64,000 nucleotides of DNA, from assembly GCA_963847445.1 (NCBI GenBank), contig CAWJZV010000009.1, forward strand, positions 32,001 through 96,000, given 5' to 3'. Below are positions 1 to 57,552 of this stretch, piece after piece. The stretch comes from an uncultured delta proteobacterium. GTDB lineage: Bacteria; Desulfobacterota; Binatia; UBA9968. Both the position numbers and the translations under genes were made by a program. How positions within the stretch are numbered: position 1 is the stretch's first letter; every line of letters starts with the position of its first letter. The notes beneath the pieces are model-generated. The model had not been told where the DNA came from and ran no database searches. It worked only from the letters and a program-made list of their open reading frames with translations.

Positions 1-661
1 CGCGAAAGAAACCGTGCAGTTCATAGTCATCATTATTGGCCCGACGGATGAGCGGCAACTGGCTCGCTTCCAGTGCCGCGAGATAGCTGCCCGCCGCGTC
101 AGTTTGGAGCAGCGCGCCGACCGCGCGCGGATCGAGGGTGGTTAATAGCGCCGCATGCCGATAGAACTGCTGCACTGCCGGCGGCTGTTTGCGGTAAAAT
201 TCGTCCGCCAGGGAATCGAAAGCATGCCGTCCCTGAGAATATTGCCGGTCCATCTCCGAGAGCCGCTGGCTCAGCACCGCACAGAAGTGCAGCAGCCAGG
301 TGGCATGCTTGGCGATCAAATCGTCCCAGGACTCACGGCTGAGTTTCCATAGCAGACAATCTTTTACCGCGATCATGGTCGCCGAACGAGGCGCCGACGA
401 GAGCAAAGCCATCTCGCCAAAATACTCCTGGGGCCCGAGCACGGCGATGGTTTCCGACCGGCCGCCGCCACTGTCCACTCGAACATCTACCGCGCCGGAT
501 TGAATCAGATAGAGCGCATCACCCTGGTCGCCTTGGGAAAATATTTTATGGCCGGCGGCACACTCCACTTCGACCAGATAACCCATGATCTTAGCGATGT
601 CTTCACGCGACAGCCCGGAGAACAGCGGGATGTTTCTAATGGTATCGGCTAAATCGGCCAT
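1..661 (-). CDS. cyclic-nucleotide-binding domain protein, N-terminal part (runs off window); paralog of 42192..44825
   Basis: Not in the ORF track. Manual translation from ATG at 661 gives MADLADTIRNIPLFSGLSREDIAKIMGYL...QGDQGDALYLIQSGAV...FGEMALLSSAPRSAT, a cNMP-binding motif closely matching the start of 42192..44825. Confidence 0.85.
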   Translation of the reverse strand, partial: MADLADTIRNIPLFSGLSREDIAKIMGYLVEVECAAGHKIFSQGDQGDALYLIQSGAVDVRVDSGGGRSETIAVLGPQEYFGEMALLSSAPRSATMIAVKDCLLWKLSRESWDDLIAKHATWLLHFCAVLSQRLSEMDRQYSQGRHAFDSLADEFYRKQPPAVQQFYRHAALLTTLDPRAVGALLQTDAAGSYLAALEASQLPLIRRANNDDYELHGFFR

Positions 662-843
662 CGCTAGTTTGCTGGTGGAATTCTCCTGGTCAGAAGTTGT
701 TACTCTAGCGCAAAGGCAGCCCGATTCATAAACTTTCCCACAGAAACGCGCAACCGGCTCTCTCACAGGCGTGGCGACTGCCAATCCAGCGTGGCAATCG
801 CCGGATTGAACTCATCCGTGCCGACCTCTAGGATAGGGTTGAC

Positions 844-2004
844 ATGAAGAGTGAGCCGTTTTCTCTCTACATTCATATACCGTACTGCCTCAGCAAGTGT
901 CCGTACTGCGACTTCAATTCCCACGTCGTCGCGCAGATCCCGGAGACCGGTTATACCGACGCGCTGCTACGGGAACTGGAACTTTATGGCGAGGAAAGCG
1001 GCTGGCGCGGCCGAACCTTACAGAGCATCTTCTTCGGCGGCGGCACGCCGTCGACATTCAAACCGACCAGCATCGGCAAACTTCTGGCCTGGGTCGCCGC
1101 GACTTTTCCCATCGCCAACGACTGCGAAATCACCATGGAGGCGAATCCTGGAACCGTCGACGCCGCTCATTTCGCCGGCTACCGCGACGCCGGGGTCAAT
1201 CGCATCAGCGTCGGCGTGCAGTCGTTTCAAGCGAAACTGTTAAAGTTCTTGGGCCGCGTCCATTCGGCTGACGAAGCCGAGAAGGCTTTGAACATCGTCA
1301 AACAGTCCGGCTTTGACAATTTCAGTTTCGATCTGATTTACGCCAATCCTGGGCAAACCCTGGCCGATCTCGACGCCGATCTCGACACTGCTCTGGAATT
1401 TAATCCGCCGCACCTGTCGGCCTACAATCTCACTTTCGAAGAGGGCACGCCTTTCCATCATGAATACCGCGCCGGCAGAATGGCTAATCTGGACGAAGAT
1501 GTAGAGATCGCCATGGCCGAGCTGATCGATGCAAAACTCGGCGCCGCCGGCTTGAAACGCTACGAGATTTCCAACTATGCACGTCCGTGGTTTCACTCGC
1601 GCCATAATGTGAACTATTGGCATAGCGGCGATTATCTCGGCCTCGGCGCCGGCGCCCACAGCTATCGCCGCAATGACGACGGTGTCACCGGACGACGCTG
1701 GAACAATGAGAAAAGCCCGGCCAAATACATGACTCAGATCGACGACACCCGCCAAGCCGTCGTCGAACGGGAGTCCATCGACGCTCACAAAGCGGCGGCC
1801 GAGTTCATGTTCCTGGGTTTGCGTATGACCGAAGGCATCCGCGCCGACATTTTCCGTCAACGTTTCGGCCAAACAGCGCAGCAGTTTTATCCGCAGATCG
1901 ATACCTGGATCGAAGGCGACCTCATGGTAGAGCAAGGCGAATTTCTCCGTTTCACCGCCAAAGGGCTCATGCTCGCTAACTCGATCTTCGTGCATTTCAT
2001 GTAG
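844..2004 (+). CDS. hemW: radical SAM heme chaperone HemW (HemN-like)
   Basis: YIHIPYCLSKCPYCDF (CxxxCxxC), FFGGGTP, HNVNYW (HNxxYW); 386 aa. Confidence 0.9.
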   Translation: MKSEPFSLYIHIPYCLSKCPYCDFNSHVVAQIPETGYTDALLRELELYGEESGWRGRTLQSIFFGGGTPSTFKPTSIGKLLAWVAATFPIANDCEITMEANPGTVDAAHFAGYRDAGVNRISVGVQSFQAKLLKFLGRVHSADEAEKALNIVKQSGFDNFSFDLIYANPGQTLADLDADLDTALEFNPPHLSAYNLTFEEGTPFHHEYRAGRMANLDEDVEIAMAELIDAKLGAAGLKRYEISNYARPWFHSRHNVNYWHSGDYLGLGAGAHSYRRNDDGVTGRRWNNEKSPAKYMTQIDDTRQAVVERESIDAHKAAAEFMFLGLRMTEGIRADIFRQRFGQTAQQFYPQIDTWIEGDLMVEQGEFLRFTAKGLMLANSIFVHFM

Positions 2005-2025
2005 GGGCGACCGGCGGTCGCCCTT
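2001..2025 (+). repeat. REP-like GTAG-initiated palindrome
   Basis: GTAGGGGCGACCGGCGGTCGCCCTT; the core gggcgaccggcggtcgccctt recurs identically at 37128-37148. Confidence 0.7.
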
Positions 2026-2056
2026 AACGACAGATTATTTCGCTCTGGAGGATACG

Positions 2057-3255
2057 ATGGTACCGCTAACCTTAACAATCTGCGCATCGACCATATCGGC
2101 AGCTTAGTGCGCCCAACGCAGCTCAAAGAGGTCTTTGCCCGCTTCGACCGCGGCCAAGCTAGCAAAGAAGAATTGAGCCGATCTCAGGACGAAGCGATTC
2201 GCGACGTTATTGCGCAGCAGGAAAGTCACGGCTATCCCATAGTCACCGACGGCGAATTTCGCCGTCATAGTTTTCAAGAAAGTTTTTCCGAATGCGTCAC
2301 CGGCTTCGACGTGCCGAAGAATATCGGCCTCTACTACGAGAAACGCGACTTGAACGAAACCCCGCTTGAGCGCGCCGAGCAAAACTTTGAAGAGGCCGGC
2401 CCGGCGATCATCACCCGGCGTGGCGCCGCGGAACGCTTGAAGGTCGTGCGCAACCTGCCGCTGGAAGAGTACCGCTATGCCCAAAGCGTCGCGAAAGTGC
2501 CGGCCAAAATCACGATCCTCGGCCCCGATCGCATCGCCCAGCGCTTCAAATGGGAAGCGTCGTTGAATGTCTACCAAGGCCTCGACGACTTCGTCGAGCA
2601 TATCGTTGCCATCGAACGGCAGATGATCGCCGAGCTCGTGAAAGCCGGCTGCAAGTACATCCAGATCGACGCCCCCGGCTACACCGCCTACGTCGACAAA
2701 GTATCATTGGACAGAATGCGCTCCCGCGGTGAAGATCCCGAAAGAAACTTCCAACGCTCCATCGACGCCGACAACGCGCTGATCGAAGGTTTTCCCGGCG
2801 TGACTTTCGGAATACATATCTGCCGCGGTAACGCCCGCACCATCGATCCGCAAACCGGCAAGCTCGTGCCGCAGTGGCATCGCGAAGGCAGCTACGACGC
2901 CATCGCCGAGAAACTCTTCAACACGCTCAAACATCAAAGACTGCTTTTGGAATACGACAGCGACCGCGCCGGCGGCTTCGAACCGCTTCGCCTGGTGCCG
3001 AAAGACAAAATCGTTGTGTTGGGCTTAGTGTCGACGAAAAATTCCGACATGGAAACCGTCGACGACCTGAAACGCCGCATCGATCAAGCGAGCAAATATC
3101 TGCCCATCGACCAACTCGCCTTGAGCCCCCAGTGCGGCTTCGGCGGTATCGACTCGAAAGTGCTTAGCGAAGCGGAAATGTGGCGGAAGCTCGATACGAT
3201 CGTCGAGACGGCACAACCAAGTGTGGAATTGACCGAGACTAACAATACTCTATGA
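2057..3255 (+). CDS. cobalamin-independent methionine synthase II-like protein (MetE C-terminal-type), probable indels at both ends
   Basis: DHIGSLVRP, TDGEFRR, Zn ligands HICRGN / EYD / PQCGF. GGAGG precedes ATG 2057, which is one base out of frame with ORF 2107..3255. A shifted frame near the 3' end gives ...QVWN* ending at 3232. Confidence 0.8.
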
Positions 3256-3257
3256 CG

Positions 3258-3539
3258 CTAACTGTCTGGCCTGACGCTACTCAGCCACTCTTCGTGCACA
3301 TCGACCCAGATCGAATCTTGATCGTGGCAGGTCGACACTTCGCTTAAGTCGAATTTGACGGTGTAGAGCGGTTTGTGAATGCCGCGGTGATCGCGGATGT
3401 TTTCCAAAACACCGTGGACTAGGCCGATGACGCCGCGCTTGCCGCGAATGTAACGTGGCGTGCGCGGATTGCCAGCCGGGTTATCGTTGGCGACCATGAC
3501 GGCGTCGCCGATATTGTATTTGCTCGTCGTGTCGTTCAT
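3258..3539 (-). CDS. nitrile hydratase beta-subunit C-terminal (SH3-like) domain only; comparable to thiocyanate hydrolase alpha subunit
   Basis: KYNIGDAVMV...NPRTPRYIRGKRGVI...LYTVKF...VDVHEEWL; 93 aa; directly downstream of the NHase alpha gene. Confidence 0.85.
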   Translation of the reverse strand: MNDTTSKYNIGDAVMVANDNPAGNPRTPRYIRGKRGVIGLVHGVLENIRDHRGIHKPLYTVKFDLSEVSTCHDQDSIWVDVHEEWLSSVRPDS

Positions 3540-3548
3540 AGAATTGTC

Positions 3549-4622
3549 TCAATCAGGCCGCACGCGCGGCATCTCCGGCTCGACGTGGGCTGCTTCTCGC
3601 TCGCGCAACTGCGACGGCTCCAGTGCGTAGCCGGCGCCGATCAAACTATCGACCGTGACGAGCTTGGCCAATTCTGCTTCCGACATGCCATCGCTGCCGG
3701 CGGGGCGTTGCGGCAAGACAAAGTAGCGCACGTCTGAGGTGCTATCCCAAACCCGCAGTTCTTTATCGCTGGGAAACTCTAGCTGAAACATGTCCTTCAT
3801 GCAGGCGCGCGGGTTCTGCACGATGTTGGTGCGGTAGCTTTCGTGCTTGTACCACCACGGAGTGTCGCCGAGGATGTCGTAGGGATAACAGGAACATAAC
3901 GTGCAGACGACGACGTTGTGCGTTTTTTCGGTATTTTCGACAACCACCAATTTGCCGACCTTGCCCTGATGCACGCCCATTTCTCTGAGCGCCTCGCGGC
4001 CGGTATCGAGCAAGGCCTTTTTGAACTCCGCGTCGGTCCACGCCTTGGCGACGATCACGCCGCCGGCCCAGGGCCGTTCTTCGTGTAATTGCTTCCAGCG
4101 CTGTGCCAAATCTTCCCGCGTCGCCCAGCCGCGCTGGATCAAGGCTTGGACGAATACTTCCAGCAACTCCTGGTAGTCGTTTAGATCTTGTTCCACGCTC
4201 ACCATGCGCTCTTCGAGGGTGCCATGGTGTTCCTTCTTTTTGATCTTAAAAAAATCGTCATAGTCGCCGCGCTCCTTGCGGTTGTCCTCGGTGACCATAT
4301 CCATGCCTTCGACGGTGCGCGCTGAAACCAAGGCGATGCCTTTGACATACTCATCGAGCCATTCTTCCAAATAGCGCACCCGCGCTTCGACGTTTTTCCC
4401 CTGGGGCTTGCCGATCTTGAAGAAATGATCTTTCTTCTTGAGCGTCGAGCGCACCTTAAGCAAATCGTAAAACGTCACGACGTTACGCCGCAGTAGATAG
4501 AAAATCCGCGGCTCGAAGCGTTTGGCACGGTAATATTCCAGGTCTTCTTCGACGGCTTTAACATGCGCCAGGTAATCGTGCATATGGCCTTCGAACGGCT
4601 TGTGCCCATGTTTTCCTGACAT
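3549..4622 (-). CDS. nitrile hydratase alpha / thiocyanate hydrolase gamma family metal-binding subunit with long N-terminal extension
   Basis: VVCTLCSCYP (Co-type motif), IVAKAWTDAEFK, VWDSTSDVRYFVLPQRP; 357 aa versus about 200-240 aa for typical members. Confidence 0.9.
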   Translation of the reverse strand: MSGKHGHKPFEGHMHDYLAHVKAVEEDLEYYRAKRFEPRIFYLLRRNVVTFYDLLKVRSTLKKKDHFFKIGKPQGKNVEARVRYLEEWLDEYVKGIALVSARTVEGMDMVTEDNRKERGDYDDFFKIKKKEHHGTLEERMVSVEQDLNDYQELLEVFVQALIQRGWATREDLAQRWKQLHEERPWAGGVIVAKAWTDAEFKKALLDTGREALREMGVHQGKVGKLVVVENTEKTHNVVVCTLCSCYPYDILGDTPWWYKHESYRTNIVQNPRACMKDMFQLEFPSDKELRVWDSTSDVRYFVLPQRPAGSDGMSEAELAKLVTVDSLIGAGYALEPSQLREREAAHVEPEMPRVRPD

Positions 4623-4648
4623 CGAATATTCCTCCGAGTCTCGGCCCT

Positions 4649-6364
4649 TTAGTGGCTATCGAAAATCTCTTGGTATTGTTTTAACTTCGCTTTGGCGGCA
4701 TCGGTTTCCGCCTGAGTCGGTTGGGCTGGATCGGCCGCCGGCGGCAAGCAACCGAACTTCATCAAACAAGCCATCAATAGCAGCCGTGCCTTGGTCGCGG
4801 TCAAATTACTGCCGGCAATCGCCAGCGGATCGCGCGTGGCATCGACAAAACCGCCTGCATTGCCGCGGCCGACTTTGACCACCGGCATGCCGCTGAAGGT
4901 CGCGCGCTTTAACGCCGCATCCACCGAATTGCTCATGGCGCCAAAGGGCGCCGAGCCCTCGGCCACAAAGCCGGCGAGTGGCGCCATGCGCAGATTGTTT
5001 TCAATGCGCGCGAGAATATCGACTTCGCTGCTCGCGTTCCCCGAAGTGTCCTCAGGCAGATAACGCGCATGCTTGACTATCGTCACCTTGGGAATCGCCG
5101 CCGCCAGCAAATCACCTGTGGTCTCCTTGATTGGCACCGCGATGATGCCGATCGTTGAACCTTGAACCCTTGAACCTTGAACATCCTTTGGCATTTGGCG
5201 CAGGTTCACCAGCGAGTGATGCGTATGCCGCTTGATCGGTTTGAAAGAAAACTGCGGCGCGCCGGGATGGCCCATTCTGCCGATGATGCCGCCATGACCG
5301 CCCGTGGCAATATAACCGCCGGGGCGAGCATCGGCTTTTTGCACATCGCGCGCGGTAAAAATCTGCTCGTCGAGGATCGCCACCGCGCCGATACAGTCGC
5401 GGCCGTTGTCGTCGGCCCAAATTTTCGACGTTATATAATCCACCGAATCGACGATGTTGCGGTCGCCGTCGTTGCCGATGGCGCCATGGGGACGCTGCGA
5501 GGAATTACCGACAATCGGCACCGTCGTGTCGATCAACAGATTGAGCCAGTAGGTGGTCTCCTCGACGAAGGGACTGCCTTCAAGCCAAATCCCGCCGGCA
5601 TACCTGCCGCTGCCTAAAGCTTGCTGCACGACATTGGTCAACCGTGCCAGCGCCGCCATGGGCGGCTCTTTGCGCAGATAACCGGGGCGGTAGGGAAAGA
5701 AATCGTTGCCACGAATCTCGGCAGGAATGTCGCCGGTGCCGACATCGGTACGTTCGCTCTCACGCCGCCCGGACACGTAACCACCTGACGGCAAGGCGCG
5801 GTAAAAGTCGAAGTCCGCTTTCCCCGTCAGCAGGCAACCCACACCTTCGTCTGAGATTCCTAATCGGTCGATCTCTTCGAACAAGCGCGCGCCATCGGGA
5901 AAGAACGGCACGCGAACCCGATCGGCTGGAATATTTTTCTCCGTGCCGTCCATCTCCCATGGCTGTCCGTTAGCTTGGCGCGCCATGTAGGGGAGCGGAT
6001 AGAGGCCGTCTTCAGGTTTGAGCGTAATCTCGTAAACCGGTTTGTCGTCGGCGCCGGTGCGTTGTTTGTGAAAGATACCCGCCGCGTCGAGATAACCGTC
6101 CGGTGGCGCGTAAAGCTCGGCGTGATCGCGCTCGAGCGGGTGGGCGCTGAATTGCTCGACATAAACGGTCACCGGCGCCGCCAAGCGTTGCGCGCGCAGC
6201 ACGTCGAAACGCATCGGCGAGCCGTCTTTGTGGGTGCGAACAGGTAGGCCGTACTTTTCGCGCGCCTTGTTGCTGGTTACCAACGGCTCACTGTTTTGAA
6301 TCGTCGCCGTCGGTCCGGAAAAAACCGCGATACGCGGTTTCGCCTCGCTGCCTGTGTCAGCCAT
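4649..6364 (-). CDS. L-asparaginase-fold protein with divergent active-site motifs
   Basis: IAVFSGPTATI (cf. ATGGTIA), WLEGSPFVEETTYWL (cf. HGTDTMEETA), GNSSQRP, SNLTATKARLLL; start taken at ATG 6364. Confidence 0.75.
   Translation of the reverse strand: MADTGSEAKPRIAVFSGPTATIQNSEPLVTSNKAREKYGLPVRTHKDGSPMRFDVLRAQRLAAPVTVYVEQFSAHPLERDHAELYAPPDGYLDAAGIFHKQRTGADDKPVYEITLKPEDGLYPLPYMARQANGQPWEMDGTEKNIPADRVRVPFFPDGARLFEEIDRLGISDEGVGCLLTGKADFDFYRALPSGGYVSGRRESERTDVGTGDIPAEIRGNDFFPYRPGYLRKEPPMAALARLTNVVQQALGSGRYAGGIWLEGSPFVEETTYWLNLLIDTTVPIVGNSSQRPHGAIGNDGDRNIVDSVDYITSKIWADDNGRDCIGAVAILDEQIFTARDVQKADARPGGYIATGGHGGIIGRMGHPGAPQFSFKPIKRHTHHSLVNLRQMPKDVQGSRVQGSTIGIIAVPIKETTGDLLAAAIPKVTIVKHARYLPEDTSGNASSEVDILARIENNLRMAPLAGFVAEGSAPFGAMSNSVDAALKRATFSGMPVVKVGRGNAGGFVDATRDPLAIAGSNLTATKARLLLMACLMKFGCLPPAADPAQPTQAETDAAKAKLKQYQEIFDSH
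5155..5182. repeat. heptamer tandem repeat (ttgaacc) inside coding sequence
   Basis: ttgaacc ttgaaccc ttgaacc ttgaac; encodes VQGSRVQGS on the minus strand. Confidence 0.75.
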
Positions 6365-6404
6365 TATGAACTCGCTGAGATAGAATGAGTAAAAGCAACG
6401 ATTC

Positions 6405-6983
6405 TCATTTAAGCGCAAACGGCAGCTGCTTAGGCCCGTAGCCCTGCCAATATTTGTTGGTCGCCGGGTCGTAGCGTCCCTGAAGGAAACCGCCGGCTTT
6501 TTCGGCGCGGACGATAATCGCTACCGTCCGCTCATCGCCGCTCTCCTCGGCGTGAATCGCATAGGGCGGCACCAGGTCGATCTTGCCCGCACTCACTTTG
6601 ACGTTGACCGATTTACGCACCTCGGCGTAGTCAGGCTTTGACTGGTCATCGACGCGTTCATAACGCTCAATGGATTCGGAACCATCGAGCACGCCGTATA
6701 GCGTCCAGTTATGCGCGTGGTCGTGGATCGCCGTGCGCGTGTGCGGCGCCTTGATCAAACCGTTGATGACGAATTTGTAGTCGGGATCCTCATAGAAAAG
6801 TAAGTTCTCAGCGCGCTCGCCGCCCTGAGAACAATCCGGCCAATGCTTCGACTGTTCCCTCACCGCCGGATCGGCGATCAGCTCCCCCAGGAGAGGGGTC
6901 ATCTTCTCCCAGCGTTTTGCCGGATCGATTTCTTCGGCGTGAAGCTGGCGTGCGGACGCGATAAACTTTTGTACTGCGGACAT
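6405..6983 (-). CDS. cysteine-dioxygenase-like cupin (3-His)
   Basis: TAIHDHAHNWTLYGVLDGSE...AIHAE; GGAGG ribosome-binding site before ATG 6983. Confidence 0.7.
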   Translation of the reverse strand: MSAVQKFIASARQLHAEEIDPAKRWEKMTPLLGELIADPAVREQSKHWPDCSQGGERAENLLFYEDPDYKFVINGLIKAPHTRTAIHDHAHNWTLYGVLDGSESIERYERVDDQSKPDYAEVRKSVNVKVSAGKIDLVPPYAIHAEESGDERTVAIIVRAEKAGGFLQGRYDPATNKYWQGYGPKQLPFALK

Positions 6984-7101
6984 CGGTTCCTCCTTCAGCA
7001 TAATGCCTATTTTTGTGAACTAGCGAATTATTAGTCCGATGAGATACTACTCGTCAAGCCGGACTGAAAGATTTCAAATTACAGATTCCAAATTCCAAAA
7101 T

Positions 7102-7141
7102 AAAAAAGGCTCCGACAGCGATCACGCCAGCGGAGCCTTTT
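7102..7141 (-). terminator. intrinsic terminator after ahcY (possibly bidirectional)
   Basis: aaaaggctccg ... cggagcctttt stem flanked by A and T tracts. Confidence 0.75.
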
Positions 7142-7162
7142 GAAGGGGTTAGCAAATCGAAC

Positions 7163-8449
<1,287 letters not shown>

Positions 8450-8495
8450 TCAGTTTGTCGTAATAAAGGTTTGCTAATCAATTGGTGGCAAAACA

Positions 8496-8518
8496 CAGGG
8501 TGCGCGACGCGCACCCTG
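8496..8518. repeat. REP-like palindrome between metK and ahcY
   Basis: cagggtgcgcg-a-cgcgcaccctg perfect inverted repeat. Confidence 0.65.
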
Positions 8519-8576
8519 CTTGCTTATTGTCGTCTTGAGTATGAAAAATGACCGGCTGCCGCCCAGCGAACGATCG

Positions 8577-9755
8577 CTAGACTCGCCCAGCCGCTTTCTT
8601 GAGATCGGCCGCGCGATCGGTTTTTTCCCAAGTAAACATACCCTCTTCCGGAGCTCGGCCGAAGTGGCCGTAGGCTGCCGTGGCGCGATAGATCGGCCGT
8701 TTCAAATCGAGGGTTTGAATGATGCCCTTGGGGCTCAGATCGAAACTGTCTTGGACGATTTTGGCGATCATGTCTTCTGGAATCGCCGCGGTGCCGAAGG
8801 TATCGACGAGCACCGAAACCGGCTGCGCCACACCGATGACGTAAGCCAGTTGGACTTCGCAACGTTGGGCCAGTTCAGCCGCAACGATATTCTTAGCCAC
8901 ATAGCGCGCCATATACGCCGCGCTGCGGTCGACCTTCGATGGGTCCTTCCCAGAGAATGCACCGCCGCCATGACGGCCCATGCCGCCATAGGTGTCGACG
9001 ATAATTTTGCGGCCGGTCAGCCCGCAATCGCCTTGCGGGCCACCGACAACGAACCGGCCCGTCGGGTTGACGTGAAAAATCGTGTCTTTGTCCAAGTAGT
9101 CGGCGGGAATCACGGCTTTGATGACGCCGTCGATGATCGTCTCGCGCAGTTTCGCGTACTCGACATCGGCGCTGTGCTGCGTCGAGATCACGACGTTTTT
9201 GACCTTGACCGGCTTGCCGTCACGATACTCGACGGTAACCTGGGATTTGCTGTCGGGGCGGAGAAAATAAGCTTCGCCGCCTTTGCGGATCTTGGCGAGA
9301 TAGTGAACGAGGTTGTGCGCCATCTGAATCGGCAATGGCATCAGTTCAGGCGTTTCGTCGCAGGCGTAGCCGAACATCATGCCTTGATCGCCAGCCCCTT
9401 GTTCCTTGTGCAAACCTTGGCCTTCGGTAACCCCCTGAGAAATATCCGGCGACTGTTGCTCGATGGCGGTGAGAATCGCGCAGGTGTTGCCGTCGAAACC
9501 CATCGACGAATCCGTGTAGCCGATATCGCGCACTACTTCGCGGACGATATCGACATAAGGAACCTTGGTCTTACTGGTGATTTCGCCGGCAACGACGACC
9601 ATGCCCGTCTTCGCTAAGCTCTCGCAGGCAACGCGGCTATCGGGGTCCCCGGTAAGGTGAGCGTCGAGTATGGCATCGGATACTTGATCGCATAGCTTAT
9701 CCGGATGCCCTTCCGAAACGGACTCCGAAGTGAATAAGAAATTTTTGCCGGCCAT
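8577..9755 (-). CDS. metK: S-adenosylmethionine synthetase
   Basis: [28 protein letters not shown]; GGAGGT ribosome-binding site before ATG 9755. Confidence 0.98.
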
Positions 9756-9832
9756 CAGCAAGACCTCCAAAGTTCTAAGAATGGAAAATTACAATCTGCC
9801 GATTCTATCGGATCGGGAATGGTCATTCAACC

Positions 9833-10108
9833 TTATTCGCTCTCGTTGAAGCGTGCGTCAATGAGCTTTTCGAGCGCCTTTACCGCCTTTTCGGCATCTT
9901 CACCGGTGGCCTCGATCTGAATCTTGCTGCCCTGCGGAACTCCCAAGGACATCACCCCCAAAATGCTCCGGCCATCGGTGGTTTGGCCGTCGGCGGAAAA
10001 ACTGATCTGAGCGGAAAACTTGTTGACGGTCTGCACCAGCAGCGCGGCCGCGCGCGCGTGCACACCCAATTTATTCTTGATTTCGATTTTCTTTACGACT
10101 TTGCTCAT
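9833..10108 (-). CDS. ptsH: phosphocarrier protein HPr/NPr
   Basis: NKLGVHARAA (His15) and DGRSILGVMSL (Ser46 region). Confidence 0.92.
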   Translation of the reverse strand: MSKVVKKIEIKNKLGVHARAAALLVQTVNKFSAQISFSADGQTTDGRSILGVMSLGVPQGSKIQIEATGEDAEKAVKALEKLIDARFNESE

Positions 10109-10112
10109 AAAC

Positions 10113-10979
10113 TTATTTGTCGATATCCCGATGCTTGACATGCACGCGCAAGCTACCGCCACCGAAGCGCTTTTGCAGCTCCTCGACCAACGCCACGGAA
10201 CGGTGGCGGCCGCCGGTGCAACCGAGCCCCAGCGTCAAACTGCTTTTGCCCTCACGTTCGTAGAGCGGCAAAGTAAACTCCAAGAGCGCATAGAGACGAT
10301 CGAGAAAGGCGCGGGTTTCGGCATTGGACAGAACATAATCCTCGACTTCCCGGTCCAGGCCGCTCTTACCACGCAACTCGTTGACGAAATAGGGATTGGG
10401 CAGGAAGCGCACGTCGAGGATTACATCGGTGTCGTGGGGAATCCCGAACTTGTATCCGAAAGAAGTTAGAAACAGCGTCATGCGGCGCGCCGATGGGGCA
10501 TCGCAAAACTGCTGCTCCATCTCGCGCTTGAGCTCATGCACATTGAAGTCGCTGGTATCGATCACCTTGTCGGCCAAAGCGCGGATCGACTCCAAGGCTA
10601 TGCGCTCCCGCGCAATACCGTCTTGGACGGATCCGCCGGCGGCCGAGGGATGAGGCCGGCGGGTTTCACTGAAACGGCGCAACAACACGTCATCGGACGC
10701 GTCGAAAAACAGCACTTGAACATGATGGCCGCCGCCGCGCATCTCGGTCAGCACTTCCGGCAACGCACGCAGAAATTGACTGCCGCGGACATCGACGCCC
10801 AAGGCGATGCGCATGATATCTTCTTGATAACCTTGGCAGAGCTCGACGAATTTCGGTATCAGCGGCGCCGGCAGATTATCGATGCAAAAAAAACCGTTGT
10901 CTTCGAGGGCGCGAATCGCAAAGCTCTTACCTGAACCGGAAAGTCCGGTGATAATAAAGATGTCTAAGCCGTTGGCCAT
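10113..10979 (-). CDS. rapZ: RNase adapter RapZ
   Basis: ITGLSGSGKS, DNLP, RRFSETRRPHP, SFGYKFG, DVRFLPNP, GCTGGRHRSV. Confidence 0.95.
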   Translation of the reverse strand: MANGLDIFIITGLSGSGKSFAIRALEDNGFFCIDNLPAPLIPKFVELCQGYQEDIMRIALGVDVRGSQFLRALPEVLTEMRGGGHHVQVLFFDASDDVLLRRFSETRRPHPSAAGGSVQDGIARERIALESIRALADKVIDTSDFNVHELKREMEQQFCDAPSARRMTLFLTSFGYKFGIPHDTDVILDVRFLPNPYFVNELRGKSGLDREVEDYVLSNAETRAFLDRLYALLEFTLPLYEREGKSSLTLGLGCTGGRHRSVALVEELQKRFGGGSLRVHVKHRDIDK

Positions 10980-10994
10980 ACCGTAACTGGACGA

Positions 10995-11456
10995 TTAGAA
11001 TTTGTCGTCTGCCGCGCTAATCAGTTGAAACAGCTCCTGGCTGGTGCTGCCCGCCATTAAATGTTGGCGAAAAAATTCGTCCTTCAACAATCGTGAAATG
11101 CGCGCCAGCGCTTTGAGGTGATCGGTGGCGGCGTTCTCCGGTGCGATCAGGACAAAAAACAGGTGAGTTGGACCGCCGTCGAGAGAATTGAAGTCGACGC
11201 CCGCCGGACTGCGCGCAAACAGACCGTAGATCTTATCTAGGCCAGGCAATTTGCCATGGGGTATCGCCACGCCGTCACCGATCGCAGTCGAACTGATCCG
11301 TTCCCGTTCCTGAAGCACGGCGAGAACTTGTTTTTGCTCTAAGTTCTGGTGCTTGGCGGCTAACCCAGCCGCGAGTTCTTCCAACACCGAGCTTTTGTCG
11401 CGGTTGACAAGAGCGGGTATGACGGTGTGAACACTGACAAAATCGGTAATCTTCAC
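10995..11456 (-). CDS. ptsN: PTS EIIA (Ntr/fructose-type)
   Basis: ERERISSTAIGDGVAIPHGK, HLKALARISRLL; follows rpoN. Confidence 0.9.
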   Translation of the reverse strand: MKITDFVSVHTVIPALVNRDKSSVLEELAAGLAAKHQNLEQKQVLAVLQERERISSTAIGDGVAIPHGKLPGLDKIYGLFARSPAGVDFNSLDGGPTHLFFVLIAPENAATDHLKALARISRLLKDEFFRQHLMAGSTSQELFQLISAADDKF

Positions 11457-11578
11457 AAACTTCCCTTTTGCTGCCAAGCCGCGCCGGCTCTGATTATTTT
11501 ACCGCCAGAGTCGGCGCGGCTTGGCGAAACCCAACAGCGACTTGAATACCATGCATCGGCCGTTCAACTCCGATCCGG

Positions 11579-13054
11579 CTACTTGCGGATAAAATGGCGT
11601 CGCTTGGACGACGGCAGGACGCCCATGGCTTCGCGGTACTTAGCCACGGTGCGGCGGGCGATTTCGATGGAATCATCGGACAGCATCACGGCGATATGCT
11701 GATCGCTGTAGGGCTTGCGAGGATCTTCGCCGGCAACGATCGCGCGAATTTTTTCTTTGACGCTCTCGCTGGCAACATCGTCGCCGCCGCGGCTCATCAA
11801 GCCGCTCTGAAAGAAAAATTTGAGTTCGAACAAGCCCTGGGGCGTATGCACGTATTTGTTCGCCGTTGCCCGGCTCACCGTTGATTCGTGCATGGAAATA
11901 TCGTCGGCGACCTGGCGCAACACCATGGGTTTCAAATGGCTCACACCGTGATCGAGGAACTCTTCCTGAAATTTGAAAATGCTCTGGGTGACCTTCATCA
12001 GCGTCGCCTGGCGCTGTTGAATGCTCTTGATCAGCCAGGTCGCCGCCCGAACTTTTTCCTGCAGGTACTGCCGAGCCTGCTCTTCCTCGGCCCCTTCCTG
12101 TCCGGCCATGCGGCGATACAGCGAGCTCACGCGCAGCCGCGGCACGCCGTCGTCGTTTAGATAAATCACCCATTCACCGCTGATTTTCTCGACGAAAACA
12201 TCGGGCAGCACGGTGCGCACATCGTCTTGCTCGAATCCGCGGGACGGTTTCGGTTCCAGCGAAGCGATCAAGTGCGCCGCGTCGGCGATCTCATCGACGG
12301 TGACGCCGAGATCCTTAGCGAGCTTTTCATAGCGCTTCGACTCGAGATAATTCAAGTAGCCGTCGGCAATGCGCGCCGCCAGGCTATCCTTGAGCTTTAG
12401 ATTTTCCAGCTGCACCAGAAGACACTCGCGCAGGTCGCGCGCGGCGACCCCAACCGGATCGAAAAACTGGATGCGCTTGAGCACCGCTTCCGCTTCCGCG
12501 GGGGTACATTCCACGGCACTGCAAACTTCATCGAGGGTCAGAGCCAGATAACCATTCTCACTAATATTCTGGATGATGTAGAAGCCGATGTTCGATTCCC
12601 GTTCGCTGATCTTCGACAAACGCAACTGCCAAATCAGATGATCTTCCAGGGAAGTTTTCTTAGTTAAGCTATTTTCCCACGACGGCGGCGAGTCGCCATC
12701 GTCGGACATCGCCTCGGCGGTGAGCGAGCTATGCACGCCGTTGGAATGGCTATCGATATACTCTTGCCAATCCAGGGTGCCGATCTTGTCCACCGTGTTG
12801 GGCTCGCGCGGCGCGACCAATTCGGCGAACTCTTCGGTCGGTTCGCTTTTGGTTTCGGCGCGCGGCGGCTCGGCGACTTCGGGTTCGTCCGTGGCGCCCT
12901 CTTCGAGAGCTGGGTTTTCTTGCAGCTCTTTTAGAACCATTTCTTCGAGCTCGACGCGGGACAACTGCAATAACTTGATCGCCTGCTGTAACTGCGGCGT
13001 CATCACCAGCGTCTGAGCCAGCTTTTGAACTTGGTGTAAATTTAGACCTGCCAT
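11579..13054 (-). CDS. rpoN: RNA polymerase sigma-54 factor
   Basis: MTPQLQQAIKLLQL, HESTVSR, RpoN box ARRTVAKYRE. Confidence 0.98.
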   Translation of the reverse strand: MAGLNLHQVQKLAQTLVMTPQLQQAIKLLQLSRVELEEMVLKELQENPALEEGATDEPEVAEPPRAETKSEPTEEFAELVAPREPNTVDKIGTLDWQEYIDSHSNGVHSSLTAEAMSDDGDSPPSWENSLTKKTSLEDHLIWQLRLSKISERESNIGFYIIQNISENGYLALTLDEVCSAVECTPAEAEAVLKRIQFFDPVGVAARDLRECLLVQLENLKLKDSLAARIADGYLNYLESKRYEKLAKDLGVTVDEIADAAHLIASLEPKPSRGFEQDDVRTVLPDVFVEKISGEWVIYLNDDGVPRLRVSSLYRRMAGQEGAEEEQARQYLQEKVRAATWLIKSIQQRQATLMKVTQSIFKFQEEFLDHGVSHLKPMVLRQVADDISMHESTVSRATANKYVHTPQGLFELKFFFQSGLMSRGGDDVASESVKEKIRAIVAGEDPRKPYSDQHIAVMLSDDSIEIARRTVAKYREAMGVLPSSKRRHFIRK

Positions 13055-19862: not shown

Positions 19863-20138
19863 GGACTCACGAATTCACGGATGCAATGACAATCGATTGA
19901 ATGGTTAATACTGGCATGGCGTCGCCAAAAACAAAAAACCGCAATGGCTTTCCCGGAAAGCGCATTACGGAATTCGATAATACGCTGGCAGGTAAAAGCT
20001 GTCAACGCGAATCGCGCCATCAAGCGCGCGCTGACAAAGAAATCTAACCGCGCGAAAGAGTCGATCCTTCGGCGCTTGACTGATCGAGGCACAGTCATGA
20101 TAGGAATGAGGCAAGACCTGCAGAATAGGAAATGGCTC

Positions 20139-21065
20139 ATGGCAGAACTAATCAAAATCAAAGCGGGCTTCGCCACCATCGGCCAAGGCGCAGGGCCGAT
20201 GATGGTCACCTGGAAAGCCGGATTGTTTCGCAAGCATGGCCTCGATGTCGACCGGCCGCCGGTGATGGGCAGCGCCAAGGGCGTCGTGCGCGGCTTGATG
20301 TCGGGAGATATCCAGTTTGGCAACCTGGCGGCGCCAGCGCCGCTGCGAGCCAATCTCAAAGGCGAAGCCGATGTGGTTTTCCTCACCGGCGGCATCAATC
20401 AGCAATTTCTAGTCGGCCGCCCAGGCATCAATAGCCGAGAAGAGCTGTCCGGCAGGAAAATCGGCACGGTCAATGACGGCGGCATCGGCGACGCGCTGGT
20501 GAAGTTCGTTGTCGCCAAACTCGACGCCGCCGGCGTCAAAGGCCTGCAACAAGTGACCATCGGCCATGGCGCCGAGGCAGAAATGGCAGCTTTGCTCAGC
20601 GGCACGGTCGATGTCGTCGTCGGCACACCGCCGGAATGCATCGACTCCATCCGCCATGGCTGCAAGTACCTGATCGATTTTGCCGAATACGGGCTCAACT
20701 ATGCCCTGGGCGGTATCGCCGGACGGCGCGATTATATAGAGAAAAATCCCGAGATCACCCGGCAGTTCGTCAAAGCCTATGTCGAAGGCATGCACCGCTA
20801 TCGCACCGACCGAGAATTCACCGTCGATGTCCAGGCCGACTACAGCGGCATCGCCGACCGCACCATCGCCGAAGAAACCTACGACCTCACCCAACCCGGC
20901 ATGCCGCGCGCTCCCTACCCGGTGGTCGCCTCACTGCAAACCCTGCTTGATTTCATGGCCAAGGAATTACCCGAAGCCCGCGGCGCCGACGCCAGGAAAT
21001 TCGTCGACGACCGCTTTATCCGGGAACTGGAAGACAACGGCTTCATCGCTTCTTTAGGGAGGTAA
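20139..21065 (+). CDS. SsuA/NMT1-THI5-like solute-binding protein (no clear signal peptide)
   Basis: AGLFRKHGLDV, LSGRKIG, YIEKNPEITRQFVKA, FVDDRFIRELEDNGF; start taken at ATG 20139. Confidence 0.75.
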   Translation: MAELIKIKAGFATIGQGAGPMMVTWKAGLFRKHGLDVDRPPVMGSAKGVVRGLMSGDIQFGNLAAPAPLRANLKGEADVVFLTGGINQQFLVGRPGINSREELSGRKIGTVNDGGIGDALVKFVVAKLDAAGVKGLQQVTIGHGAEAEMAALLSGTVDVVVGTPPECIDSIRHGCKYLIDFAEYGLNYALGGIAGRRDYIEKNPEITRQFVKAYVEGMHRYRTDREFTVDVQADYSGIADRTIAEETYDLTQPGMPRAPYPVVASLQTLLDFMAKELPEARGADARKFVDDRFIRELEDNGFIASLGR

Positions 21066-21071
21066 TTCCAG

Positions 21072-22076
21072 ATGGCCAAGCTCAGCTTGAGTTTCGTTAC
21101 TTTGTTGTGGCTGGCGGTCTCGGCAGCAAACATCAGCGCCGCAACCAACGATGGCTTGATCGACGCCGCCAAGCGCGAGGGCGAGCTGGTCTACTACGCG
21201 TCGATGAACCTCGCCGAAGCCAACGCGATCATCGGCGAATTCGAGAAGCGTTATCCATTCATTAAGGTAAGACTGCACCGCACCGGCAGCGAAAAGCTGC
21301 TGACCCGAGTATTGACCGAGTACCGCGCTAAAAAAATCTTCGCCGACGTCATTCAAACCGTTGAGTTCAGCATGCATATTTTCAATCGCACCGGCGTCCT
21401 GGCGCGCTACCTGCCGCAATCGAACGCTTGGTATTCGAAAGACTTCAAGGAAGAAGGGTTTTGGACGACCGTCTATTACAACGCCTACGTGACCGCCTAC
21501 AACACCCGCCTGGTGCCGGCGCGCCAGTTGGCGAAATCCTATGACGACCTGCTCGATAGTAAATGGAAGGGCAAGCTCTTGATGGAGGGCACCAAGGCCG
21601 ATTGGTTCGCCGGCATGTTGCAAATTCTTGGACCGGAGCGCGGCCTCAAATACATGCGCGAACTCGCCAAACAGCAGCCGAGCCCGCGTGAAGGCCATGA
21701 GCTCTTGGCGCAATTGGTCGTCGCCGGCGAAGGTGTTTACGATGTCAATATTCCCGTGTCATCGGTGGAGCGCATGAAAGAGCGCGGCGCGCCCATCGAT
21801 TGGATTGCGCTGGGCCCGGTGCCGGCGATCATGGTCGGCGCCGGCATCGCGACTGGCGCGCCCCACCCCAACGCCGCCAAATTATTTTTAGAATTCGTCC
21901 TGTCGCGCGATGGACAGAAGCTCATGCAGACCCCCGGCCGCCATATCGCCCGCGGCGACCTCGCCAACGAGCAAGCGGCGATGCTTAAAGATCTGAAAAT
22001 CGTCCCAGTCAATCCCGCGCTGGCGGAAAAGCTCGACGAGTACGCCAAGCAGATGCGGACAATCTTCGGCGGCTAA
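21072..22076 (+). CDS. extracellular solute-binding protein (Fe3+/polyamine-type)
   Basis: Signal peptide, AAKREGELVYY, YNTRLV, DLLDSKWKGK, APHPNAAKLFLEF. Confidence 0.8.
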   Translation: MAKLSLSFVTLLWLAVSAANISAATNDGLIDAAKREGELVYYASMNLAEANAIIGEFEKRYPFIKVRLHRTGSEKLLTRVLTEYRAKKIFADVIQTVEFSMHIFNRTGVLARYLPQSNAWYSKDFKEEGFWTTVYYNAYVTAYNTRLVPARQLAKSYDDLLDSKWKGKLLMEGTKADWFAGMLQILGPERGLKYMRELAKQQPSPREGHELLAQLVVAGEGVYDVNIPVSSVERMKERGAPIDWIALGPVPAIMVGAGIATGAPHPNAAKLFLEFVLSRDGQKLMQTPGRHIARGDLANEQAAMLKDLKIVPVNPALAEKLDEYAKQMRTIFGG

Positions 22077-22142
22077 CGATGCTTTGTTGTATTGGTCCTA
22101 TCAGTCTTATAGGTCCTATTCTTAGTCACAAAGGAGAAAATC

Positions 22143-22916
22143 ATGCGTTTCATGTTTTTAAACCACTCGGCGCAGCATCACTCCGCCGAGCTCGAAGTCC
22201 ATATCGCCAAGCTGCTCAAAAGTTACGCCTCGCCCGACACCACTTTTGAGCTCGCCTACCCGGAAGATCTCGGCAGCGGCGCCGTGTTGAGACTGCTCGA
22301 AGAGCGCAAAGCGCTCTCCGGCCTGCATCATATTTTGGAAACCCCGGCGCTGGTGAAGAAAGCCATCGAAGCCGAGCGCCAGGGTTTCGACGCGGTGATT
22401 CAGAGCAATACCTTCGATCCCGGCGTTGAGGCGAGCCGGCTGGCGGTGCGCATCCCGGTGATCGGCCTGTTGCGCGCGTCGTTGCATTTCGCCGCCAGCA
22501 TTTGCGACCGCTTCGGGCTCATCGTGCCGTTGGAAACCCATATGCCGCACACCATGCGCATGGTGCAGACCTATGGCATGACGCCGTTCGTCAGCGGTAT
22601 CCGCACCGTCGGCCTCTACGACACCGGCGATCTGTCGGGTTATCACGATGTCGTCATCGAACGCACTTTGGCGGTGGGCAAAGAGCTGGTAGCCCAAGGC
22701 GCTCAAGCGATCATTCCTTTGGGCGGCAAGATCTACCCCTACGTGGTCACGCCGGAAGAGTTGGAACCCCATCTCGGCGTGCCGGTGATCAACACCAAAG
22801 CGGTGGGCGTTAGTTACGCGGAATTAATGGCGCGCAACAGTATTACGCACAGCATCAAAGCCTATCCCTGCCCCACCGGTCTCGATGCCGATGCGGTATC
22901 CAAGCGTTCGACCTAA
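22143..22916 (+). CDS. Asp/Glu/hydantoin racemase-family protein lacking the catalytic cysteines
   Basis: AERQGFDAVIQSNTFDPG, IPVIG, GAQAIIPLGG, GVPVIN. Confidence 0.75.
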   Translation: MRFMFLNHSAQHHSAELEVHIAKLLKSYASPDTTFELAYPEDLGSGAVLRLLEERKALSGLHHILETPALVKKAIEAERQGFDAVIQSNTFDPGVEASRLAVRIPVIGLLRASLHFAASICDRFGLIVPLETHMPHTMRMVQTYGMTPFVSGIRTVGLYDTGDLSGYHDVVIERTLAVGKELVAQGAQAIIPLGGKIYPYVVTPEELEPHLGVPVINTKAVGVSYAELMARNSITHSIKAYPCPTGLDADAVSKRST

Positions 22917-23004
22917 CCACTGCGGCAGTGAGTTGCAATGGCTTGAGGCAATCACTATGAGTTAAATCTAATATTCCCCGCAGCTTGCTGCGGGCACAAA
23001 ATTG

Positions 23005-23075
23005 CTGGGGTTTCCAAAGGGGGTTGAACATCCCCTTTGGTCGCGAGCGGGGTTCATACCCCGATCGCGAAATGC
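23005..23075. repeat. intergenic double-hairpin element
   Basis: ccaaagggg..cccctttgg followed by tcgcga-cgggg..ccccg-tcgcga. Confidence 0.5.
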
Positions 23076-23114
23076 CCGGTTGATTTGAATTTCACCTGAG
23101 GAGACCCATAGGCA

Positions 23115-25506: not shown

Positions 25507-26251
25507 ATGGACTCCGGCCAAGCCAAAATCTACGTCGACGATCTTTACGATCAAGTGCATCGCCACTGGCAAAAGCGCATTCACAACGGCGAGTTCATGA
25601 CACGCCTGCGTGACGGCACGCTGCCGCTGCCCTGTCTGCGGCGCTTTTTCAAAGACTGGGGGCTGTTCTCCATCGAGGTGGTCGCCCTCAACGCGGTGTC
25701 ATACTACGTTCATCTGCCCTTCTTCGTGGAAAATTTCGATTTGCTGGCACCGCTTTGCGACAAGGTCGCCGAAGAACTGATCTCACCCAAGCCGCCCGGC
25801 CATATCTTGATCCTGCTGGAAACCGCCAACGCATTGGGCTTAAGCAAGGAAGAATTGTTCGAGCAACCGGCATCGGCGCCGGGGCGCGCCATCAGCGATT
25901 ACTGCCGGCGGGTGTTTCAAGACGGCTCGATCATTGAGCTGTGGGGCGCCCATGTATACGAAGAAACCCTCGGCCACTGGTCGCAGCAATGGAGCCAGGC
26001 GCTGGTCAGCCATTATGGCATGAGCAAACGCCAGGCGATCTATTTCAACGCCCACGCCGAAGCCGACTTGGTCCAGCATGACGATCACATGGGCCACGGG
26101 CCGCTAAATCGCATGATCCTGCAGCGCATTCTGGAGCAGGGCAAGACAGCCAAAAAATTGGGCTACGATCCTAAATATTGCGCCTTCACCATGGTCGATC
26201 TGCAAGCGCTCATGGAACAGCACGCCTTGGACAATCCCTATCCCGGCGTGA
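25507..26251 (+). CDS. heme-oxygenase-like diiron (HDO; CADD/PqqC/TenA-like) redox protein
   Basis: EELISPKPPGH, YEET, YFNAHAEADLVQH ligand pattern; removing one C from tatcccggcgtga gives YPA* at 26251. Confidence 0.7.
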
Positions 26252-26328
26252 TCGTTAACGCTCTAGGCGAAGCCGATGCTTCGCACTGCGACGAAATTGC
26301 CAATTCAAATATCGGTCGAGGTGCTGTC

Positions 26329-56901: not shown

Positions 56902-56991
56902 CAGCTAGTTTGTTTGACCCGTCACAGGCTAAATGTTAGCTTTTTGAAACTTAACTCTAGGTCAATGAGTCCCGCCAACAGCGGAGCAATC

Positions 56992-57541: not shown

Positions 57542-57552
57542 GCGAGAGCGCC

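Follow-up and report, generated by a model that had tools for sequence, protein, structure and literature searches.

A lineage-restricted nitrile hydratase-like pair with an extended α subunit and a β subunit reduced to its C-terminal half in uncultured Binatia

In nitrile hydratases (NHases), the substrate pocket and one essential arginine come from the β subunit, and maturation of the Co-type enzymes relies on β-like chaperones. Here, we describe a four-gene block in a stretch of 64,000 nucleotides (nt) from an uncultured delta proteobacterium of the Binatia (GenBank assembly GCA_963847445.1, contig CAWJZV010000009.1, positions 32,001 to 96,000 of the forward strand; hereafter, the window). 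The block encodes a cupin, a long protein with an asparaginase fold, an NHase α subunit with an N-terminal extension, and the C-terminal half of an NHase β subunit (β-C); the N-terminal half (β-N) is missing. The gene content, its conservation, the missing β-N, the predicted contact between α and β-C, and the folds of the proteins are direct observations. On balance, we favour the interpretation that the block encodes a lineage-restricted, two-protein variant of Co-type NHase, in which the α extension would do the job of β-N, together with an accessory route involving the amidohydrolase and the cupin.

The four genes are arranged head to tail on the minus strand (positions 3258-6983), between ahcY on the side of the cupin gene and a convergent MetE-like gene, with gaps of 40, 26 and 9 nt in the order cupin, asparaginase-like gene, α and β-C. 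The gene for the thiol-dioxygenase-like cupin (192 amino acids (aa), 6405-6983) lies in an open reading frame (ORF) at 6405-7001 that could start at 7001; the probable start is the second ATG at 6983, 6 nt upstream of which lies AAGGAGG. For the long asparaginase-fold amidohydrolase (571 aa, 4649-6364; ORF 4649-6418), the ATG at 6364 (MADTG) aligns with the starts of relatives. The extended Co-type α subunit (357 aa, 3549-4622; Pfam NHase_alpha) comprises a helical extension of uncertain origin (residues 1-152, 4167-4622) and the motif for metal binding and oxidised cysteines, C240-T-L-C243-S244-C245-Y246 (3885-3905). The last gene encodes only the C-terminal half of β (93 aa, 3258-3539; Pfam NHase_beta_C). 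Between ahcY and the cupin gene, a GC-rich hairpin (GGCTCCG...CGGAGCC) followed by TTTTTTATTTT resembles an intrinsic terminator (7097-7141, minus strand); it was read by eye, and the terminator scan lists its inner stem and none inside the four-gene block. A possible promoter in the same interval (TTGACG-18-TAATAA) was also read by eye and is absent from the list of the scan. No riboswitch was detected by Rfam in bases 1-12000, where two sub-threshold matches are at chance level. The labels of the flanking genes, i.e. ahcY, MetK, a HemN-like radical SAM protein and a MetE-like protein, were checked against Pfam and NCBIfam. The ratios of non-synonymous to synonymous substitution rates (dN/dS) for the four genes are 0.03-0.22, with dS saturated. 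Judged from sequence, all four are real genes under purifying selection.

None of the 61 window ORFs scanned matched the amidase-signature, nitrilase, formamidase or NHase_beta_N families. An earlier note on this DNA had described four co-oriented genes with short gaps behind a terminator that separates them from ahcY, an α subunit with CTLCSCY, and the C-terminal half of β alone, and had reported that the window contains no gene for β-N, for a P14K/NhlE-type activator or for an amidase of the amidase-signature or nitrilase type; this description was borne out throughout. Sequencing runs that contain the stretch are mostly of DNA from soil, sediment and biofilters. One metatranscriptome library from sediment contains small contigs, with 1 mismatch in 151, for positions 4380-4530 and 4525-4675, of which the latter crosses the α start and enters the asparaginase-like gene by 27 nt; the contigs of this library cover 11 of 30 bins, and uncovered bins are uninformative. 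As evidence for co-transcription of the asparaginase-like gene and α this contig is weak, and DNA carry-over is possible.

The core of the α subunit is that of a Co-type NHase. Residues 153-330 match Pfam PF02979 (NHase_alpha) with an E-value of 9.8e-63 (211 bits, cut-off 27.2), a sequence search of the PDB returned 4ob1_A at 9.6e-58, and the core is 47-51% identical to solved Co-type α subunits. The AlphaFold2 (AF2) model of α was built from 21 closely related rows and has a moderate predicted local distance difference test score (pLDDT) of 73.3; in this model, the core superimposes on the α subunit of a Co-type NHase with a VIA-align Z of 20.6 and a root-mean-square deviation (rmsd) of 1.5 Å over 152 residues, and Foldseek matched the whole model to α chains only. 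The sequence VVCTLCSCYPY (residues 238-248) is invariant in 21 of 21 orthologues and aligns with the VCTLCSCY of solved Co-type NHases, in which the Thr and Tyr mark the cobalt type.

β-C matches Pfam NHase_beta_C at 5.9e-15 over profile positions 7-97 of 98 (PF02211 search), and no NHase_beta_N match was found on the contig. The β-C sequence NPRTPxYxRGxRG, including R26, is invariant (21/21), and we take R26 to be the arginine that hydrogen-bonds the oxidised cysteine ligands in the known enzymes. In NHases, two β arginines bind the oxidised cysteines. One of them, βArg56, is described as essential in the excerpts of the 2020 review (PMC7193024). A complex of α and β-C was predicted with an interface score (ipSAE) of 0.87 against 0.07 for the best of three controls, at least 72% of contacts are shared between runs, and partner pLDDT is at least 80. 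Of 157 solved complexes, 116 come up to the ipSAE mark applied, as do 2 of 215 mismatched pairs; these counts hold only roughly here, where our own alignments were used. The confident interface joins α residues 223-298, including T241-L242 of the metal motif, to β-C residues that include R26-P28, and R26-P28 touch α residues 241-242; the extension lies outside this interface. Solved NHases resemble the α/β-C pair, and the high score may therefore reflect likeness only.

The enzyme could still be a conventional one if a β N-half encoded elsewhere in the genome joined α and β-C, a possibility that was raised together with the original description. The assembly of the window's genome (7.19 Mb, 48 contigs, 91.8% complete) has no match to the β-N family PF21006 on the window's contig (C9), and matches only on contigs C2 and C48. 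These matches belong to two other NHase loci (C2:92135-93698, L001; C48:49782-50917, L002), each with its own α, β-N and β-C, and no orphan β-N gene was found in this genome. At the C2 locus, a β-N-like open frame of 129 aa stands in place of a P14K-type activator (PF21006, 40.2 bits). Moreover, when ten carrier genomes (nine sampled genomes and G955) were searched with PF21006 and PF02211, β-C was present in all ten and β-N at E<=0.01 in only six; the genomes without a match are G1072 (98% complete), G998 (one contig), G1064 (two contigs) and G955, and G1072 has exactly one α, one β-C and zero β-N. Since 4 of 10 carriers lack a β-N match, we conclude that a stray β N-half does not complete the enzyme, and this possibility is close to refuted, with next to no probability left to it.

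Two further observations concern other NHase loci. The C2 and C48 loci have frame breaks inside β or α, and a neighbouring PEPCK-like gene is broken too; thus, the assembly probably carries indel errors, rather than the loci being pseudogenes, while the four genes of the window block are intact. In a metagenome-assembled genome (MAG) of the Paracoccaceae (L057:5823-7576), β is encoded by two overlapping ORFs, β-N of 100 aa and β-C of 105 aa, with a further β-N-like ORF upstream, which resembles the layout of three-subunit thiocyanate hydrolase.

The α extension is well conserved. The AF2 model places helices at residues 17-45, 51-60, 78-98, 118-125 and 136-163. Mean column identity over 20 orthologues is 88%, and dN/dS is 0.03-0.06, compared with 0.04-0.09 for the α core; both ratios are rough, because dS is above 1. 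By these measures, the extension is as constrained as the catalytic core. When its profile was compared with Pfam and the sequences of the PDB, the only matches were at chance level, namely a designed fibre (E 1.2) and a coiled coil (E 0.022), and a search of the ESM Atlas gave no usable match. BLASTP of the extension against canonical α and against itself was not significant, and a short repeat seen by eye, D-[HD]-F-F-K-I-x-K, is therefore only a remark. Short proteins that match the extension are mostly fragments. One of them, P0330 (160 aa, from a Binatia MAG), consists of the extension alone and ends where the α core should begin; it could be naturally split or the outcome of a frameshift.

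A sister NHase family in the same order offers a precedent for the origin of the extension. In G998, G1064 and G955, a β-C gene of 87 aa is followed by an α gene of 305-318 aa (L119:909-2100 in G998, also L120 and L121). Residues 35-101 of the sister α match Pfam NHase_beta_N (3.8e-7, 30.6 bits, cut-off 21.5), and hhalign of the sister N-terminal part against five β-N sequences gave 78% probability (E 1.8e-5), in an alignment that takes in the D-E-x-R stretch holding the essential arginine; these weak stretches had been missed by the genome-level PF21006 scan. Thus, β-N has been fused to α at least once in this order, with β-C left as a separate gene. The extension of the window's family occupies the same place as the sister β-N, and a non-significant alignment pairs its invariant E-D-N-R115 with E-D-G-R52 of the sister. 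R115 lies in an invariant V-x-[ED]-D-x-R-x-E and, by this non-significant alignment only, is a candidate for the N-half arginine, which has no identifiable counterpart in the window's family, whereas the C-half arginine R26 is present. On this basis, we lean towards the extension being a diverged β N-half.

The α/β-C pair is restricted to one lineage. Extended α (E<=1e-70) was found in 10 of 151 genomes sampled from the class, the window's included, all of one order. The nine other carriers are seven of the eight genomes of the window's family and both genomes of a second family in this order; extended α was found in 0 of 8 genomes of the third family and in none of 16 other families sampled. 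Among the nine, three of the same genus carry the full block, and in G1056 the cupin gene lies directly upstream of α with no asparaginase-like gene in the genome.

A scan of one genome per species returned 45 loci, of which 41, the main clade, have extended α at 75-95% identity. These 41 are labelled Binatia (15), 'delta proteobacterium' or Deltaproteobacteria (14), Syntrophobacter(aceae) (5), Thermodesulfobacteriota (2) and other phyla (5). Their flanking metK and ahcY genes are 82-98% identical to those of the window, and we therefore take the loci to be one lineage with uneven naming or binning. The asparaginase-like gene lies directly upstream of α in 39 of 40 evaluable loci (1 without sequence), the cupin gene upstream of the asparaginase-like gene in 36 of 37 (4 without sequence), and β-C downstream of α in 38 of 38 (3 without sequence). 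Further out, ahcY lies upstream of the block in 26 of 33 evaluable loci (8 without sequence) and the MetE-like gene downstream in 25 of 35 (6 without sequence). Where the flanks differ, they consist of unrelated genes (SCO1/VKOR, TctC, PLD, glycosyltransferases, solute-binding proteins and Amidohydro_2), and thus the block moves as a unit.

Using P0330, a diverged relative of the extension, as query, we recovered 31 metagenome loci. By tblastn, five of these (L098-L102, 76-82%) belong to the main clade and 26 have an α 46-61% identical to that of the window. Gene orders in these diverged clades, as read by tblastn and a quick IQ-TREE tree, vary. The order is asparaginase-like gene, α, β-C and cupin in L088; ahcY, α, β-C, cupin and asparaginase-like gene in L095; metK, ahcY, asparaginase-like gene and α in L090; and, in L091-L094 and L096, a gene for a 290-aa protein without family match followed by α, β-C and cupin. 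In L097, L104, L106, L108, L110 and L113, α and β-C stand alone. Compared with the window, the cupin is 63-71%, the asparaginase-like protein 71-74% and α only 51-61% identical in these clades. The conserved protein of ~290 aa directly upstream of α in the clade without the asparaginase-like gene (L091:2692-3570, L093:3021-3893, L094:4-684) has no Pfam, NCBIfam or PDB sequence match, and, from the look of its sequence, it may have a fold of the glyoxalase/vicinal oxygen chelate (VOC) type.

These data bear on whether only α and β-C form a functional unit, with the cupin and asparaginase-like genes being inherited synteny from unrelated metabolism. Both genes are missing or unlinked in several carriers and both families occur without NHase, as this explanation would have it; against it, the linkage persists through four gene orders and many different flanks, the gaps are short with no internal terminator, and one contig of the RNA library runs from the asparaginase-like gene into α. 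We consider synteny alone quite unlikely. Linkage that survives four gene orders points to a functional tie, while its absence in other clades indicates that the tie is not obligatory. Accordingly, the co-conservation of the pair with the cupin and asparaginase-like genes, on which the earlier note had made its interpretation depend, holds as close linkage in the main clade and fails as a rule for all carriers, several of which lack one or both genes. The α/β-C pair looks like the constant core, and the cupin and asparaginase-like genes look like non-obligatory genes of an accessory pathway.

The asparaginase-like protein matches the N-domain of Pfam Asparaginase at 1.6e-10, and its AF2 model (pLDDT 82.5, predicted template modelling score 0.85) was matched by Foldseek to type II L-asparaginases (E 5.5e-14; template modelling score, normalised to the target, 0.72 to 6rue_B). 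About 340 columns, covering both domains, align with type II asparaginases at 18-22% identity; ~340 of 571 residues being aligned, ~230 residues are additions. Against the type II model TIGR00520 the protein scores 59.4 bits, below the cut-off of 314.3. In 20 sequences with 46-87% identity, T21, P265 and K343 are invariant and S264 is conserved in at least 90%; from phmmer alignments, we take T21, S264, P265 and K343 to correspond to Thr12, Thr89, Asp90 and Lys162 in E. coli numbering. Thus placed, the counterparts of Thr12 and Lys162 are kept, whereas S264-P265 stands in place of Thr89-Asp90. Having Pro instead of Asp90 speaks against plain L-asparagine being the substrate.

The family of this protein is small, with 1276 matches at E<=0.001 among 1.84 billion representatives and ~20 full-length clusters at 45-57% identity; members occur in Devosia and Streptomyces and on plasmids of Rhizobium, Agrobacterium and Burkholderia. 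A search of 401 alphaproteobacterial genomes gave two matches, whereas the Streptomyces member matched nothing in 401 genomes sampled around a Pseudonocardia genome within its class. Seven contexts without NHase were read in all. They include a formamidase gene that, like the urease operon at the same place, neighbours the asparaginase-like gene, close to amidases and a peptide transporter; an ABC transporter and flavin monooxygenases; RidA and CMD; two short-chain dehydrogenases/reductases with a TauE-type exporter; and a metallo-β-lactamase hydrolase, ChaC, a cysteine dioxygenase (CDO)-like cupin and RidA. Such contexts are compatible with a hydrolase of general use, amide- or nitrogen-releasing, having been recruited to the hydratase in Binatia. 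On the Rhizobium tumorigenes plasmid pRt932 (L065, 8051-15732), the homologue lies between an acetamidase/formamidase gene, the stop codon of which it overlaps, and a complete urease operon; this is a hint that members of the family liberate nitrogen from an amide or ureide. CDO-like and MetE-like neighbours in G713 were considered as counterparts of the window genes and rejected, at only 25% and 22% identity.

The cupin has no Pfam match at 0.01, CDO_I included. Its best PDB sequence match by phmmer is the mercaptosuccinate dioxygenase 8vni (4.6e-8), and, with a profile of 16 sequences, the E-value for 8vni is 7.3e-10 (residues 4-159) and those for 3-mercaptopropionate dioxygenases are ~6e-5 to 2e-4. 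H87, H89 and H144 are invariant (16/16) and align with histidines of 8vni, 4wvz and 6xb9. At least six more homologues are encoded in the window's genome. The Amidohydro_2 family recurs beside cupins of this family (L076:6274-8114 and L077:5870-7775 in G955; L049:8409-9413; L094:2692-3627), and in two cases an Amidohydro_2 gene adjoins the NHase block itself.

The cupin might act on the hydratase itself, i.e. as a maturation factor that oxygenates the cysteine ligands to sulfinate and sulfenate, in the way that thiol dioxygenases treat free or protein cysteine, or delivers the metal, in place of the β-like P14K/NhlE activators. The operon has no P14K-type gene, and four of ten carriers lack any match to PF21006, the family that P14K-type activators match (as the one at C2 does, with 40.2 bits). 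The cupin gene also stays adjacent to the pair where the asparaginase-like gene has been lost (G1056; L091-L096), the cupin is better conserved between clades than α (63-71% vs 51-61%), and the diverged order α, β-C, cupin mimics the order of structural genes before activator in the excerpts of the review (PMC7193024). However, cupin paralogues with the same invariant residues directly follow Amidohydro_2 genes in G955, rather than adjoining NHases; six carriers (G1072, G989, G971, G998, G1064 and G955) have the pair without an adjacent cupin gene, with homologues at 57-68% identity elsewhere in the genome; and the conserved Arg and Tyr of the cupin would fit a small-molecule pocket. The occurrence of cupin paralogues beside other enzymes favours a metabolic, small-molecule role over that of a dedicated maturase, and we regard the maturation role as unlikely. 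Its more specific form is distinctly improbable: the cupin would be a dedicated protein-cysteine oxygenase or metal-and-oxygen maturase of an NHase without any β-N-like part or self-subunit-swapping chaperone, and the extension a remodelled β-N. If true, no enzyme before the cupin would have been known to generate the Cys-sulfinate/sulfenate ligands of the NHase class.

A different substrate would give all three types of enzyme a job in a single chemical line: an S-cyano compound (R-S-CN) would be hydrated to the S-carbamoyl compound, the carbamoyl amide would be cleaved off by the asparaginase/glutaminase-fold protein, and this would leave a free thiol, e.g. cysteine or homocysteine, for the cupin to oxidise. 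In agreement with this possibility, α matches the γ subunit of thiocyanate hydrolase (TIGR03887, 1.4e-42; PDB 2dd4_C, 2.6e-35), the cluster lies beside ahcY and metK despite reshuffling (L090, L091, L095, L099; 26 of 33 main-clade loci), and a MetE-like gene converges on the block in 25 of 35 loci. However, α scores higher as an NHase (205.5 bits) than as a thiocyanate hydrolase (145.8 bits, below the cut-off of 291.45), and a terminator separates ahcY from the operon. Moreover, Tyr248, three residues after the last Cys of the motif, is invariant in 21 orthologues, where, partly from the titles of 3vyg and 3vyh, we take thiocyanate hydrolase to have Arg136 and P. thermophila NHase Trp116. We regard an S-cyano substrate as a long shot.

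The reading that we prefer is thus the NHase variant with an accessory route. The long α subunit would combine the canonical fold and an intact Cys-Thr-Leu-Cys-Ser-Cys-Tyr site with a conserved, helical domain of 150 residues in front of them, and β would be reduced to the C-terminal barrel while retaining the arginine for the oxidised cysteine ligands. The N-terminal domain of α would replace the missing β N-half in that it closes the active site and provides the second arginine. This domain probably derives from a β N-half that was fused to α and has diverged strongly; such a fusion is recognisable in the sister family. The hydratase would convert a nitrile to the amide, the asparaginase-fold enzyme would hydrolyse the amide to the acid and ammonia, and the cupin would use O2 to oxidise a part of the substrate or product, probably one that bears a thiol. 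Overall, the most likely function would be catabolism or detoxification by a short route. What we infer from the data above is the enzyme activity, the part played by the extension, the sequence of steps and the nature of the substrate.

Several results weigh against this reading. The α subunit, at 205.5 bits, is below the cut-off of the NCBIfam NHase α equivalog model (249.85), and an activator of the P14K/NhlE or COG0523 type was found neither among the four genes nor in the 61 window ORFs scanned. As to the extension, hhalign against the five β-N sequences gave 1.9% probability (1.1% with a broader profile) and against the sister-family extension 1.6%; these values are not significant and thus lend no sequence support to homology between the extension and β-N. 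In a VIA-align search of 48,161 chains, three β N-halves are among the first 24 entries listed, i.e. 2dd4_B (Z 4.6, rmsd 9.2 Å), 4fm4_B (Z 4.5, rmsd 8.1 Å) and 3qxe_B (Z 3.7, rmsd 8.2 Å), which is within the noise for helical models and only a hint of a shared fold. As to the linked genes, five of the nine other carriers have no adjacent cupin gene and four, which are 97-100% complete, no asparaginase-like gene at E<=1e-60. The main-clade exception, L052 in G955, has α and β-C alone; this genome has an asparaginase-like paralogue (63%) beside a dienelactone hydrolase gene and cupins at 60, 51 and 41% identity, two of them behind Amidohydro_2 genes. The asparaginase-like family also occurs in Alpha- and Betaproteobacteria without NHase, and, since the window's member has Pro in place of Asp90, an amino-acid amide may not be its substrate. 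Finally, thiol dioxygenases have a Ser-His-Tyr outer-sphere motif according to the excerpts of a study of the family (PMC10966181); in the cupin, the family His and Tyr are replaced by Ile and the invariant Arg159 (...SIHVYGA... of 4wvz vs ...AIIVRAE...).

Three further features of the window lie outside the block, all on the plus strand. An ORF of 705 aa (56914-59028) joins GTP cyclohydrolase I (residues 27-189) to a full M17 leucyl aminopeptidase (233-699) and may be a fusion or the product of a lost stop codon. A protein of 585 aa (25507-27261) has a TENA/haem-oxygenase-like N-terminal part and at least five Kelch repeats. About 13 kb from the NHase block, positions 19944-24206 encode NMT1-like/solute-binding proteins, an Asp/Glu/hydantoin racemase and Amidohydro_2.

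Compared with known systems, the block shares with the Co-type NHase of Pseudonocardia thermophila (PDB 1ire/4ob1) the α core, VCTLCSCY, the fold and the β-C arginine; it differs in having no β N-domain, 150 additional N-terminal residues in α, and no adjacent gene for P14K/NhlE or an amidase-signature amidase. The thiocyanate hydrolase of Thiobacillus thioparus (PDB 2dd4) has a homologous cysteine-claw subunit and a split β with the C-half as a separate small protein; however, that enzyme keeps the N-half as its own subunit and the window encodes none. In the toyocamycin nitrile hydratase ToyJKL, β is likewise split into two small subunits, with both halves present. The asparaginase-like protein shares the two-domain fold and the Thr12 and Lys162 positions with E. 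coli type II L-asparaginase (EcAII, PDB 3eca), but is ~230 residues longer, 18-22% identical, and has Ser-Pro for Thr89-Asp90. The cupin shares the three histidines with thiol dioxygenases (8vni; 4tlf, 6xb9) and lacks the family His and Tyr. In the eukaryotic fused NHase of Monosiga brevicollis, β material precedes α in one chain, as in the sister loci L119-L121; there, in the excerpts of the review, the whole of β is fused through a His-rich linker (PMC7193024), whereas in the present families a fusion would take in no more than the N-half, and β-C has a gene of its own.

In the same excerpts, six NHase layouts are distinguished, i.e. α-β-activator, β-α-activator, the three-subunit thiocyanate hydrolase with its three-gene layout, α-AnhE-β, fused β-α and solo-subunit (PMC7193024), and the window layout matches none of these. 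A search of the open full-text literature, with subscription journals and supplements outside its scope, found nothing on NHase in Binatia/Binatota or on NHase with an asparaginase and a cupin, and the titles and opening abstract lines listed for NHase with a thiol or cysteine dioxygenase, i.e. those of a fungal genome paper and of papers on thiol dioxygenase mechanism, protein-derived cofactors and cysteine sulfinic acid, concern no such gene cluster. The suggestion of the earlier note that this may be an undescribed two-subunit architecture therefore stands, within this literature, for a pair conserved in 10 of 151 genomes. Its two-subunit reading has good support, and the roles that it suggested for the asparaginase-fold protein, as the amidase, and for the cupin, in maturation or substrate supply, are plausible proposals that clearly do not extend to all carriers.

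In total, these data describe a conserved and constrained enzyme without a β N-half, in some genomes without any β-N-like protein, which raises the questions of what builds the substrate pocket and how the metal and the oxidised cysteines are installed. The layout would add a seventh to the six in the excerpts of the review (PMC7193024). The enzyme may have a different substrate range, which would be of practical interest for amide synthesis. For the Binatia, which are abundant uncultured soil bacteria, the block points to an unrecognised nitrile or cyanide-derived route.

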